This document shows, piece after piece, positions 7,479 to 26,366 of a DNA stretch of 64,000 nt. Source of the DNA: Oscillospiraceae bacterium (GTDB lineage Bacteria > Bacillota > Clostridia > Oscillospirales > JAVBQB01); the NCBI GenBank assembly GCA_031549265.1, contig JAVBQB010000001.1:20027-84026 (forward strand), given 5' to 3'. The notes beneath the pieces were generated by a model that had not been told where the DNA came from, searched no databases, and saw only the letters and a list, made by a program, of their open reading frames with translations. The stretch's first letter is position 1. Each line of letters opens with the position of its first letter. Both the position numbers and the translations under genes were made by a program.

Positions 7479-7587
7479 GGAGGACCAGATGGAGAGCTCG
7501 GGGCATCCATACGCTATCTCAGTCAAAGGTACACGATGCCTTATCCCGAGCTGAAAGGTCTTCTTACTGATATCGGAACCGAGGAAT
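7479..7587 (+). CDS. cotJC: cotJC fragment 2 of 3 (about codons 30-65)
   Basis: GGPDGELGASIRYLSQRYTMPYPELKGLLTDIGTEE is the CotJC/Mn-catalase middle segment. Confidence 0.92.
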
Positions 7588-7610
7588 GCGCGCCGCTTTG
7601 ATGTCAATGA

Positions 7611-9005
7611 TCACGGCGCAGCAGACTTTCTCTGCCGGTCGAGAACGCTCGCTGCCGATTTGAGCGCTGCGGCGGCGACCGGGGCCGCAACTCCGCTTCC
7701 CGACCCCCCGTTTTCAACTATGACTGCGAACGCGAGCGGATAATCTTCGTTTTGCACAAAACCTGCAAACCAGGCGTGAGGTTTCTTATCTTTGCCGACT
7801 TCGGCAGTGCCGGATTTCGCGCAGACTTTCAGTTTGCCGAACTGTTTGTCTCCGTAGTTGTTTTTAACGTTGTCACGCATAAGCGCGGCCAGGGTCTCGC
7901 AGGTACCGGCGCTGAACATCCGCTGGCTCATTTGAGTGTTGCCGCCGCGAATAACGAATCCTGTATCAGTGGTCACATCATGTAGTAAATAGGGGCTCGC
8001 AGCCTGGCCCTTGTTGGCGATCGAGCCCATGATGAGCATCATATGGCATGGGTTGGCAAGGTCGGTATATTGTCCAATCCCCGCCCATGCAAGATCCGCG
8101 TCATTCACGCCGCTGACGTCAAATTTGCTTTGACTCAGCCGAATCTCGTCGGCTCTGAGTCTGGTGTTGAATCCGGCGGCTTCGGCGGCGGCAGTAAGTT
8201 TCTGCGCGCCGACTCTCAGAGATATTTGGGCGAACGCGGTGTTGCATGATACGGTCAGCGCCTGACCAAACGTCAGATGTCCGTGTTTTTTAGGACAGGT
8301 TATCTTGTCTCCGTTGTAATCGGTGCTGCCGGTACATTCAAAGGTTTCGTTCAGCAGCTCGGGCTGCGAATCAATCGCCGCCGCGGCGGTAATTACCTTG
8401 AAAACCGAGCCGGGAGTATAGACAGAAGAAAAGAACCGGTTAATGAACATGCCTTCATACTTGTCTTTGTTGTTGTCGGTCAATTTTGGCGGATTGTCGG
8501 GATCGAAAGCGGGCGAACTCGCGATCAGCAGTATTTCGCCGGTCATATAATTGTATACGCCTACCGTTCCGCGGTTTTTGCCGAGAGCCTTCAGCGCGTC
8601 GGCACTGGCGGAAGCGCTGATCGTCAGCTTGAGGTCGTATCCGCCATCACCGCCGACGCCGGTTAGAATATTGTATCCGACCAGCTCGTCCCGAAACACA
8701 CGCTGCACGCTGGAGGCAATGTTGCCCTGCCTGTCGCCTACCACATGTACGGTGGCTTCGCGGATAGACTGCTTGGCGTTGTATTTGCGCTTGCCGTCAA
8801 CAGTTTCGGCGAGAATCAGGCCGTCAGCGTCAATTACCCGTCCGGCGTCGGTAATCACACCTTTTCTGTATACATGCTGGTTCGAGGGGTGCGTGACCCA
8901 CTCCGGCGCGTTTGATAGATAATCAAACAAAAAGAATGTCAGTCCCGCGCAAAAAAAGGCGGCAAGCACCATTACGCATATCGACCGTCTTGAGAGAGTC
9001 TTCAT
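7611..9005 (-). CDS. Class B penicillin-binding protein (transpeptidase, PbpA-like)
   Basis: PGSVFK (SxxK), SCN (SxN), KSGTAE motifs; N-terminal TM. Confidence 0.92.
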   Translation of the reverse strand: MKTLSRRSICVMVLAAFFCAGLTFFLFDYLSNAPEWVTHPSNQHVYRKGVITDAGRVIDADGLILAETVDGKRKYNAKQSIREATVHVVGDRQGNIASSVQRVFRDELVGYNILTGVGGDGGYDLKLTISASASADALKALGKNRGTVGVYNYMTGEILLIASSPAFDPDNPPKLTDNNKDKYEGMFINRFFSSVYTPGSVFKVITAAAAIDSQPELLNETFECTGSTDYNGDKITCPKKHGHLTFGQALTVSCNTAFAQISLRVGAQKLTAAAEAAGFNTRLRADEIRLSQSKFDVSGVNDADLAWAGIGQYTDLANPCHMMLIMGSIANKGQAASPYLLHDVTTDTGFVIRGGNTQMSQRMFSAGTCETLAALMRDNVKNNYGDKQFGKLKVCAKSGTAEVGKDKKPHAWFAGFVQNEDYPLAFAVIVENGGSGSGVAAPVAAAALKSAASVLDRQRKSAAP

Positions 9006-24494: not shown

Positions 24495-24692
24495 TTACGA
24501 ATTTCTTCTCCCGTGCTGAGCATTGTTGTCGTCTTGCTCATGCGTTCTATCGCGGAAGGTTTCGGCTGATGCGGATTGTCCATCCATAACACTTGCGTCA
24601 TCAAAACAACGCAGCACAAACCGCACGGTTGTCATGCCGATTTTATACTCATACACTTTTGAGTTGCCCGTGATCTCCCCTGACATAGTCAT
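24495..24692 (-). CDS. Small hypothetical protein (about 63-65 aa) divergent from recombinase 2
   Basis: RBS GGAGGG before ATG ACT ATG; MSGEITGNSKVYEYKIGMTTVRFVLRCFDD... Confidence 0.45.
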   Translation of the reverse strand: MTMSGEITGNSKVYEYKIGMTTVRFVLRCFDDASVMDGQSASAETFRDRTHEQDDNNAQHGRRNS

Positions 24693-24752
24693 CACCCTCC
24701 AGTAATACAATTTATTCAAGATGTTCCGCTGGGATGTTATTTGGAGGTCGGA

Positions 24753-26366
24753 ATGTATTGTATGTATTTGCGCAAATCCAGGGCGGATCTGGAGAACGAG
24801 GCGCGGGGTGAAATCGAGACTCTCGCGAGGCACGAGCGGACGCTGCATTCGGTCGCTGATTCAATGGGAATCACAGTGCAGGCTGTTTACCGCGAAGTAG
24901 TTTCCGGGGAGACCATTGCTTCAAGGCCGGTTGTCCGCAAGCTGCTGGACGAAGTTAGTCAGGAAATCTGGGAAGGCGTTCTCGTCGTGGAGATCGAACG
25001 TCTGGCGCGCGGCGACACAATCGATCAGGGAGTTGTGGCGCGTACTTTTAAGCTGAGCGGCACCAGAATCATCACACCACAGAAGACATTTGACCCGTTC
25101 AACGAGTTTGACGAGGAGTATTTTGAATTCGGACTATTCATGTCGCGCAGGGAGTATAAGATGATTAACCGCAGGCTCCAGCGCGGACGAATTGCGTCGG
25201 TGATCGAGGGCAAGTATGTCGCCAATGTTGCGCCATTGGGATATGCGCGTAAAAAGCTTGAAGGGCAAAAAGGATATTCATTGATGCCCGTTCCCGAGGA
25301 AGCCGACGCGGTGCGCACTATTTTTGCGCTGTTCGCGGGGAATAACACAGATAAGAGCTACGCTGACCGCGACATGAGTATTCCGCAAATTGTCGATACG
25401 CTCAATGCAACCGCCATGAGACCGCGTAACGGCGGCAAATGGACAGTATCCACGGTGCGAACTGTTCTCGCCAATCCGGTATACATCGGGAAAATTCGCT
25501 GGAATACGAGGCCACAAAAAAAGGTGCTGACATCCGGTGAGATAAAGATCACACGTCCGCGAAATTCTGAAAAAGACTGGATTATCACAGAAGGAAAGCA
25601 TGAAGCGATAATCGACAGCAGTCTTTTTGCAACGGCTCAGGACAAACTGCGGAAAAAACAAAGAGCTGTGCGCCGTGATTTCGAACTAAAGAACCCGCTC
25701 GCCGGCTTGATATTCTGCGCTCTCTGCGGAGCAAAGCTGACACGGAGACCCCATCCGGACAACAAGCCGGATACACTCATGTGCGCTTCAAAAGGCTGCC
25801 GTTGCGTCAGCACACGGCTTGAACTAGTCGAGCAAAGGCTGCTCTCGGCAATTACTATGCTGGATGACGACCGTATATTAATAATCGCGGACGTACGTAG
25901 CCAAGAAGCGATTTCAAAGAACATAGTTAAACCTGACAGCCGCAAAACATTAAAAAAAGAACGGGACGCGATACTCGCGCAGTTGGAATCAGCTCATGAT
26001 CTACTCGAAAAAGGCGTCTATTCTGTAGAAACATTCACTGTGCGAGGAAGTGACCTGAATAGAAGGTTGGAGCTCATAAATGCTGCGCTGCAAGAGGATG
26101 GGCATACAGATCAAACGTTAGATATTCGAGCGAATGGAAAAGATGCTATGTCTTTCCGTCAATTTGTGGATATATACATGCGTCTCGAAAAATGCGGGAT
26201 GAAAAATGAGCTCTTAAAAACGGTAATTGAAAAAATCGAGTACGCTAAGACGGTTAACGGGCGGTGGCATGACAGTCCGGACAATTTCGAAGTGACTGTG
26301 TATTTGCGAGAGGAGCGTATCAGTGACAAAAACGAGGCGCGAACGAATTGGGACACTTTGAAATGA
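24753..26366 (+). CDS. Large serine recombinase of element 2
   Basis: YLRKSR catalytic motif, ERLARGD, recombinase domain, CALCG...C...C zinc ribbon; ATG at 24753 after GGAGG; the ORF crosses the right att site. Confidence 0.93.
   Translation: MYCMYLRKSRADLENEARGEIETLARHERTLHSVADSMGITVQAVYREVVSGETIASRPVVRKLLDEVSQEIWEGVLVVEIERLARGDTIDQGVVARTFKLSGTRIITPQKTFDPFNEFDEEYFEFGLFMSRREYKMINRRLQRGRIASVIEGKYVANVAPLGYARKKLEGQKGYSLMPVPEEADAVRTIFALFAGNNTDKSYADRDMSIPQIVDTLNATAMRPRNGGKWTVSTVRTVLANPVYIGKIRWNTRPQKKVLTSGEIKITRPRNSEKDWIITEGKHEAIIDSSLFATAQDKLRKKQRAVRRDFELKNPLAGLIFCALCGAKLTRRPHPDNKPDTLMCASKGCRCVSTRLELVEQRLLSAITMLDDDRILIIADVRSQEAISKNIVKPDSRKTLKKERDAILAQLESAHDLLEKGVYSVETFTVRGSDLNRRLELINAALQEDGHTDQTLDIRANGKDAMSFRQFVDIYMRLEKCGMKNELLKTVIEKIEYAKTVNGRWHDSPDNFEVTVYLREERISDKNEARTNWDTLK

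Follow-up and report, generated by a model that had tools for sequence, protein, structure and literature searches.

We describe a segment of 18,761 bp (element B, positions 7588-26348, one copy of its core sequence included) that interrupts the spore-coat gene cotJC of an Oscillospiraceae bacterium (genome G000, assembly GCA_031549265.1). The window analysed here is the whole stretch of 64,000 nt at positions 20027-84026 of contig C1, and all coordinates refer to it unless another contig is named. In our judgement this is probably a skin-type segment, bounded by the attachment (att) sites of a serine recombinase and excised precisely, whose cargo consists mostly of native core genes. The segment belongs with the skin-type intervening elements of sporulation genes by every defining feature that could be tested: it interrupts a sporulation gene whose reading frame is restored by its removal, a recombinase gene lies at its edge and the joined form occurs in nature. 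Prophage-like cargo, which is usual for such elements and not strictly defining, was not found; instead, the segment carries 13.7 kb of native genes. The G000 assembly is metagenome-type, with 1.49 Mb in four contigs, 84% completeness and 0.07% contamination, and contains the Spo0A_C domain, a marker of spore-formers. Genes were identified with Pfam, NCBIfam (curated cut-offs) and PHROG profiles, and G001 was the sole genome of the same family for comparison.

The cotJC gene lies directly downstream of a cotJA-cotJB fusion gene (2857-3318, + strand; Pfam CotJB 2.6e-26, CotJA 1.8e-11) and is divided by two insertions into three collinear pieces, all on the + strand. Piece 1 (3321-3415, residues 1-31) is 76% identical to the CotJC protein of G001 and ends in an 8 nt core, GGAGGACC, at 3408-3415. 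Piece 2 (7479-7587, residues ~32-65) ends in the 4 nt core GAAT at 7584-7587, the attL site of the large segment, and piece 3 (26349-26752, residues 66-199) is preceded by the same core, GAAT at 26345-26348, in attR. The breaks fall after residue 31, where a smaller insertion (element A) is located, and after residue 65, the site of the 18,761 bp segment. When the three pieces were joined in silico, they encoded 199 aa without premature stops, and the product aligned to the intact CotJC of G001 without gaps at 72.7% identity. The initial annotation had placed the limits of the segment at 7586-26346; these limits stand, the offset from 7588-26348 reflecting only how the common core is counted.

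The joined form was seen in sequencing data from a study of an invertebrate gut, from which three runs, present as contigs and not as reads, were aligned to positions 7000-26900. Run X1, which is DNA by guess, holds all of the sampled sequence words; X2, an RNA run, holds 53% of them, and X3, also RNA, next to none. In one X1 contig and one X2 contig, position 7583 is joined directly to 26345; four letters fit either side of this joint, and the 18,761 letters skipped are an independent measure of the segment length. The X2 joint contig is 1,235 nt long, with a depth of 44.2 and a shorter side of 105 letters, and covers 7479-7583 and 26345-26900 (105 and 556 letters) with zero mismatches. Its first 22 letters are those of positions 3386-3407, the end of piece 1; therefore, it represents cotJC with both insertions removed, element A being absent from it. 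The X1 joint contig has a depth of 4.7 and a shorter side of 26 letters. X1 also contains the occupied form, in contigs of depth 11.5, 10.9, 8.6 and 13.8 that end or begin at 7587, 7558, 26374 and 26345. These ends are branches of the assembly graph at both junctions, as expected with both forms in the reads. Junction reads exist, because a 4 nt overlap alone cannot make such a path in a 31-mer graph, and a library chimera is unlikely given the frame-restoring position of the joint, its match to the predicted core and its presence in both DNA and RNA libraries. The excision that the initial annotation had proposed is, in this exact form, present in nature.

The joined cotJC was the deepest RNA contig of the stretch in X2, at 44.2, with most bins of the cargo at 0-14; parts of the stretch had no RNA cover in X2 and X3. 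Contigs diverging from the window were also observed, at positions 21335, 12181, 17186 and 23857.

The attP sites of large serine recombinases form an imperfect dyad around a central non-palindromic dinucleotide that is also present in attB, and the crossover of these enzymes spans 2 bp. Joining the two ends of the segment in silico yields a putative attP with these properties: the 20 nt on each side of a central GA form an inverted repeat at 14 of 20 positions, and the centre of the dyad falls exactly on the GA within the GAAT core common to both ends. Of 5,000 random 86 nt windows, 0.66% contained an equally good dyad at any centre (p about 0.007). The left (P') arm, at 7588-7609 on the + strand, forms the dyad with 26325-26344 and abuts the stop codon of the pbp gene, which runs from 7611; no second copy of this arm was found in the window at up to three mismatches. 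The half-site layout of attP is described in the available part of PMC12286644. To judge from their sequence, the segment ends are a cognate att pair, with the dinucleotide GA as the likely centre of the crossover.

The cargo of the segment comprises all ten genes named in the initial annotation. Five lie on the - strand: pbp, encoding a class B penicillin-binding protein (7611-9005; Transpeptidase domain), a gene for an FHA-FtsW/RodA-family protein (9002-10702; FHA and FTSW_RODA_SPOVE domains), yebC (10712-11437), yitT (11766-12632) and mrnC, encoding a mini-RNase-III-like protein (12647-13114). The others, on the + strand, are carA (13189-14385), carB (14414-17623), dapF (17691-18533), dapL (18530-19747; TIGR03542) and guaA (19807-21339). 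The matches of yebC, carA, carB, dapF, dapL and guaA exceed the curated NCBIfam cut-offs, yitT and mrnC were assigned by Pfam, and pbp and FHA-ftsW were identified at the family level, below the NCBIfam equivalog cut-off. The latter two form a SEDS-bPBP pair, the adjacency of which is kept in G001 and G010. As the initial annotation had also stated, phage structural, conjugation and replication families were absent from the open reading frames (ORFs) of the segment that were scanned, the small ORFs being only partly included.

The copy number of the cargo genes was assessed by tblastn against all four G000 contigs (E <= 1e-3), a search space that is 84% complete. In this search yebC, mrnC, carA, dapF and guaA matched only themselves. 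Besides its self match, carB had one 23% match to an ATP-grasp protein and dapL three matches at 24-35% to aminotransferases, whilst pbp had two at 24-27% and FHA-ftsW two at 24-28%. The closest relationship was a yitT paralogue at 41%; apart from this and the weak family paralogues, the assembly contains no second copies. Tetranucleotide distance to the genome, ranked among 1,476 windows of 4 kb, placed the region from 7.0 to 21.0 kb at the 9th-62nd percentile, so that the composition described earlier as host-like is so over this part. G001 supplied the best non-self match for all seven cargo proteins tested. GuaA was present in 41 of 41 relatives searched (G001, 60%) and FHA-FtsW in 7 of 41 (G001, 53%); CarB, DapF, YebC and MrnC were found in five of five genomes searched for each, with G001 best at 74, 58, 73 and 52%, respectively; and Pbp was 48% identical in G001 against 44% in G010. 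In sum, the cargo genes have single copies, host composition and their nearest relatives in G001, with a conserved neighbourhood for carAB-dapFL-guaA only. These data support the view that the cargo at 7.6-21.3 kb, about 13.7 of the 18.8 kb, is native chromosome rather than mobile DNA.

Comparison with G001 indicated which part of the cargo has stayed in place. On contig C13 of G001 (4,025-53,964), 38 of 48 ORFs of at least 90 aa have their best match on C1 of G000, in one order that runs from 113,838 to 54,858 in window coordinates. Next on this contig are guaA, ~10 kb present only in G001, dapL, dapF, carB and carA, followed by ~9 kb again found only in G001. Beyond carA and these ~9 kb lies a homologue of the amidase (57% identity, cut by the locus end), then radA, which corresponds to positions 482-1900, and then five ORFs matching down to position -11,424. 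The backbone of radA and amidase, carAB-dapFL-guaA and the malic-enzyme block is, on this synteny, ancestral. The initial annotation had suggested that the att sites now enclose ordinary chromosome, and the ancestral position of carAB-dapFL-guaA bears this out.

Relative to G001, G000 has extra DNA at 2577-13188 (cotJAB, cotJC pieces 1 and 2, element A, pbp-ftsW and yebC-yitT-mrnC) and at 21340-54857 (5 kb of foreign DNA, cotJC piece 3 and a 28 kb block of ordinary genes). The pbp-ftsW and mrnC-yebC genes are found on other G001 contigs, beside homologues of G000 C4:118-126 kb and C1:241-251 kb, and yebC and mrnC are adjacent on contig C5 of G001. The att sites therefore bracket 8.2 kb of unmoved chromosome, 5.5 kb that has moved, as two small blocks, and a foreign remnant of 5 kb.

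The foreign remnant begins 106 nt past guaA and holds an ORF of 228 aa (21445-22131, + strand; phrog_26391, function unknown), a hybrid histidine kinase identified by Pfam (22363-24369, + strand), an ORF of 65 aa (24495-24692, - strand) and a large serine recombinase (24753-26366, + strand). The GC content of 21445-24369 is 0.41-0.45, tetranucleotide distance at 20-25 kb lies at the 95th-97th percentile, and no homologue of the 228 aa ORF or the kinase was found in the G001 loci compared. This right-hand ~5 kb is, on the strength of these sequence features, of foreign origin. The gene list of the initial annotation, accurate as far as it went, did not include this part with its histidine kinase, and the host-like composition claimed for the segment fails here. 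Contigs end within a few hundred bases of guaA in many relatives (among them G007, G015, G019, G021, G022, G024, G026, G029, G036 and G038), which suggests a repeat or variable element beside guaA across the order.

The recombinase gene is positioned at the right edge of the segment, adjoining the 3' piece of cotJC, and reads across the attR core to a stop beyond it. Its product has the three domains of a large serine recombinase (Pfam Recombinase, PF07508, 3.1e-21; Resolvase, PF00239, 2.7e-11; Zn_ribbon_recom, PF13408, 1.3e-6), in keeping with the dyad-symmetric attP and its central dinucleotide, and matches the integrase family phrog_95 at 3.3e-87. A sister element of the recombinase was not found: public genome contigs gave three Proteobacteria loci at 24-26% identity, and a scan of metagenome contigs gave one partial locus at 34%. 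Further serine recombinases of G000 include those at C1:234299-235735, C2:3014-4192, C2:8120-10497, C2:116902-117813, C4:664873-665784 and C4:873931-874800. The window also contains an XerC/XerD-type tyrosine recombinase gene (56115-57035), which is 68% identical in G001 with conserved synteny; it is of the housekeeping dimer-resolution type and part of no element.

The 65 aa ORF is divergent from the recombinase gene, has its own ribosome-binding site and matched no Pfam or PHROG family. Prediction of a complex between it and the recombinase gave a score of 0.78, against 0.00 for the best control. Among solved complexes, 51 of 78 attain the mark set for this score, as do 2 of 108 mismatched pairs; because 7 of 44 neighbouring genes drawn blind also pass, the result is supportive and not decisive. 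Contact agreement between runs was at least 49%, and the pLDDT of the 65 aa partner was at least 42, leaving its own fold uncertain. The predicted interface involves residues 362-375 and 508-525 of the recombinase and residues 12-30 of the small protein. From the Pfam zinc-ribbon coordinates, we read the two recombinase stretches as the probable sides of the coiled-coil insertion in DBD2. Verified directionality factors are predicted to lie at the junction of DBD2 and the coiled coil, mostly by adding a beta strand, in the passages available from PMC12286644. The prediction favours binding by the 65 aa ORF, the best candidate for the recombination directionality factor. Upstream of this ORF lies CATACAATA. 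This motif fits the -10 consensus of sigma-E and sigma-K.

We propose that recombination of attL with attR at the GAAT core would remove the segment precisely, and that removal of the segment together with element A would rebuild a 199-codon cotJC, which is transcribed. The neighbouring large serine recombinase would do the cutting, with the 65 aa protein acting as its directionality factor. Excision would be confined to the terminal mother cell, given the analogy with known elements, the high RNA cover of the joined cotJC and the sigma-E dependence of the cotJ operon in Bacillus subtilis. With the cargo lacking a second copy in the assembly, a dividing cell that excised and lost the segment would be expected to die or turn auxotrophic, and this would lock the arrangement in. 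With excision limited to a non-dividing cell, the movement of host genes between attL and attR would not be selected against, and once the first host gene was inside, the element could no longer be lost.

A number of observations weigh against this account. The match of the recombinase to the Resolvase catalytic domain is modest (2.7e-11), and because G000 has at least seven other serine-recombinase genes, its position is the only ground for naming it as the acting enzyme. With 18 occurrences of its loose form in the window, where 17.7 are expected, the CATACAATA motif is a weak promoter hint. The X1 joint, with a shorter side of 26 letters, is weak DNA evidence on its own; all of the read evidence comes from the single study, and X1 is perhaps the source sample of the G000 assembly and in that case not independent of it. 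The joint of an excised circle (attP) is not listed among the X1-X3 contigs over 7000-26900, and contigs 2 and 6 are unbroken where an attP branch would break them. The X1 depth inside the segment is 8.6-10.9, compared with 13.8 in the right flank. The depth in the right part (8.6) and that of the joint (4.7) add up to about the depth of the right flank, a sum that fits loss of the excised DNA and is a weak hint, though no proof, against the persisting circle from which, according to the initial annotation, the mother cell could still transcribe the cargo. Loss of the DNA or a cured subpopulation would explain this pattern of depth and circle just as well as mother cells would. As to the cargo, pbp-ftsW and mrnC-yebC lie outside their ancestral places when compared with G001, so that only part of it is shown in situ, and the 84% completeness leaves room for a divergent second copy in the missing part of the genome. 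Finally, a footprint of the rearrangement was not found, there being no cargo fragments elsewhere in G000 and only the one left arm in the window.

The joined form could instead stem from a co-resident clone that lost the segment or never had it in cotJC. Strain heterogeneity of this kind would account for an empty form that supplies roughly one third of the local DNA depth (4.7 versus 8.6-10.9), for the reduced depth inside the segment and for the unlisted circle junction, and close relatives are indeed in the sample: 66 of the 77 X1 contigs aligned are only 95-99% alike, and contig depths sum the words of these relatives. We consider it quite unlikely. The X2 joined contig is identical to the window on both sides, which argues that it comes from the same strain, and with carAB-dapFL-guaA in an ancestral position a chromosome with an empty site and exactly these flanks must itself derive by excision, and these genes would have been lost from it in their only copies. 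The cargo was seen in one other context only, a contig that departs from the window behind guaA, at 21335; this was rejected as an alternative, because the 30 letters of its loose end are absent from both window and genome, and we read it as the guaA of another organism.

It is likewise conceivable that excision is real and sporadic, taking place in growing cells that die or live on as cross-fed auxotrophs, with cotJC decaying. The circle was not seen and a convincing sporulation promoter was not found, both of which suit this explanation. The RNA evidence does not: with joined cotJC as the deepest RNA contig, the rearranged template is in cells that express the spore-coat operon. Moreover, the open frames in all cotJC pieces and their gapless join argue for selection on the joined gene, and comparable elements are known to leave the chromosome in the course of sporulation, according to the parts available of PMC4191935, PMC5025042 and PMC5595907. 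Sporadic excision is, in our view, distinctly improbable. An assembly artefact, with a housekeeping block mis-joined to cotJC pieces, is barely credible even for a metagenome-type assembly in four contigs at 84% completeness, since an independent assembly of X1 (Logan contigs) spans both occupied junctions at about flank depth (10.9 and 8.6) and its overlapping contigs leave no part of the stretch uncovered. In addition, gene order in the flanking backbone is collinear with that of G001, the two ends make up a cognate attP, and the frame is restored exactly by the skip. Of the findings that the initial annotation had named as fatal to its reading (foreign genes with vertically inherited second copies elsewhere, lack of excision, or an assembly join within the segment), none was encountered.

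If precise excision of native chromosome is accepted, the question arises of how att sites came to enclose it. The order in G000 is radA/amidase, cotJAB with the 5' part of cotJC, block B1 (pbp-ftsW and yebC-yitT-mrnC), block B2 (carAB-dapFL-guaA), the foreign remnant, cotJC piece 3, the 28 kb block and the malic-enzyme block. With low confidence, we suggest that, compared with any order in which cotJC is contiguous, two neighbouring blocks have changed places here, which takes three breakpoints; the inner edge of the left att arm is one of them. An ordinary rearrangement may have achieved this, the simplest route, again put forward tentatively, being tandem duplication with reciprocal loss, by which an essential gene would never have been lost on the way. 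No direct repeats of at least 24 nt were found at the junctions. Routes through the recombinase itself (re-integration at a pseudo-site, or attL x attR recombination between two copies) were set aside, as no single step by which they would yield the present order could be derived. Since cotJC lies 12-26 kb from guaA in three genomes of three other families (G003, G014 and G037), its 5' part may have stayed close to where it once was. An old linkage across attR was considered and left aside: in G010, pbp-ftsW is ~4 kb from homologues of the window genes at 29123-32408, an arrangement that G001 does not have.

Element A (3416-7486; 4,071 bp) has foreign composition, its tetranucleotide distance to the genome being at the 96th-97th percentile of the 1,476 windows. 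It is flanked by two copies of the 8 nt core GGAGGACC, at 3408-3415 and 7479-7486, and encodes, both on the - strand and identified by Pfam, its own large serine recombinase (3486-5003) and an amino-acid permease (5199-6662), the only sizeable cargo besides the recombinase. An element of ~3 kb occupies the same site in cotJC of G010, with a recombinase that is 43% identical and in the opposite orientation.

The cotJC gene is a hot spot for insertions in this order. CotJC was found in 325 of 401 genomes of the order, a count that does not separate split from intact genes. Inserts of 15-36 kb are present near residue 175 in G014, G019, G030 and G035. Three inserts of 5.6-17 kb divide cotJC into four collinear parts in two genomes of genus g31, G306 (C1:347688-391496) and G098 (C4:760290-785663). 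Every insert encodes a serine recombinase of its own, and of the breaks, which fall near residues 64, 135 and 175, the first coincides with the insertion site of the 18.8 kb segment or lies close to it. Core cargo is not the rule, because the inserts of G014, G035, G306 and G098 hold mostly accessory genes without homologues in G000, and that of G019 (35.7 kb) restriction and defence genes. A different picture was obtained for G030, where an insert of 15,148 bp (C16, 3704-18852) lies between direct repeats of ~14 nt and carries trpEGDCFBA, thiF, thiH and a tenI/thiE-like gene, with a large serine recombinase adjoining the cotJC tail. Its cotJC pieces, joined in silico, give a gapless alignment of 139 aa to residues 59-197 of G001 CotJC. 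In G030, a genome of 100% completeness, trpE is single copy; trpE is outside cotJC in G098 and G212, the two of four congeners searched where it was found. The G030 recombinase is ~19-25% identical to that of G000 and the insertion site differs. To all appearances, G030 is a second, independent case of biosynthesis genes in a cotJC insert.

The segment shares with skin, the element in sigK of Bacillus subtilis and Clostridioides difficile (recombinase SpoIVCA), the position of the recombinase at the edge next to the 3' gene piece, as given in the accessible part of 10.1101/2022.02.25.481979, and the precise excision that rebuilds a mother-cell gene. Excision of the C. difficile element is controlled by a small directionality factor, according to PMC5025042 and 10.1101/2022.02.25.481979. 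The target here is cotJC instead of sigK, and two elements are located in one gene. Whereas skin elements are prophage-like, with the recombinase as their sole common gene in the passages available from 10.1101/2022.02.25.481979, the G000 segment carries mostly native single-copy biosynthesis genes. The same source reports, in part, a cotJC gene interrupted by a skin-like element in Laceyella sacchari, a member of another class of Firmicutes that is comparable only by the fact of interruption.

Similarities to other elements were also apparent. The gin element in gerE of Bacillus cereus ATCC 10987 (GirC/GirX) is non-prophage, combines a serine recombinase with an adjacent small directionality factor and is excised in sporulation (PMC5595907, in part); unlike in our segment, core-gene cargo is not described in the available passages of that paper, and the words 'housekeeping' and 'essential' are absent from its main text. 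SPbeta in spsM (SprA/SprB) likewise uses a large serine recombinase and a directionality factor to rebuild a spore-envelope gene in the mother cell, as set out in parts of PMC4191935 and PMC5499854. However, SPbeta is an active phage that leaves and re-infects, whereas the G000 segment has no recognisable phage module and would not be losable without core genes. The heterocyst elements in nifD, fdxN and hupL (XisA, XisF and XisC), although cyanobacterial, are also large deletions in a terminal non-dividing cell that rebuild a gene. XisF is a serine recombinase, and the G030 recombinase matches the XisF NCBIfam model at 1.5e-36, below its cut-off. The 172 genes deleted in Anabaena cylindrica are mostly hypothetical, integrase, tRNA and phage-related, not core biosynthesis genes, in the part available of bioRxiv 10.1101/629832. 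Core biosynthesis genes as cargo of such an element were not found in our literature search, in which subscription journals and supplementary tables were outside reach. As far as this search reaches, what is new is the native single-copy core cargo, part of it still in its ancestral place, the read-level evidence for the cutting out of a core-gene stretch, and a cotJC gene that is interrupted at two sites in G000 and at as many as three in relatives.

A bolder reading, which we regard as possible if unlikely, is that the deletion is a developmental switch: sole copies of growth genes would be cut from the mother cell, turning vegetative synthesis off for good. The genes removed would be a SEDS-PBP pair for wall synthesis, carAB, guaA, and dapL and dapF, which encode the two last steps to diaminopimelate. 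Without dapL and dapF, more of the dihydrodipicolinate pool could flow to dipicolinate for the spore. The att sites of domesticated recombinases would then be the movable borders of programmed DNA elimination in this lineage, into which host operons drift or are selected; the trp/thi insert of G030 would be a second example, and the four-piece cotJC of G306 and G098 a substrate for such evolution.

Sporulation-gene intervening elements are usually described as parasites or phage remnants. In the skin-type segment of G000, the DNA discarded would be mostly the cell's own indispensable chromosome. If this is true, the germ-line (forespore) and somatic (mother-cell) genomes of this bacterium would differ by core metabolic genes, a situation reminiscent of the programmed elimination of DNA known from ciliates and nematodes. 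Loss or mis-timing of the recombinase system would kill the cell, so that domestication would have come about in an unusual way and strong selection would test the tightness of directionality control. The segment would thereby offer a natural, precisely bounded system for determining what a terminal cell still needs from its genome.

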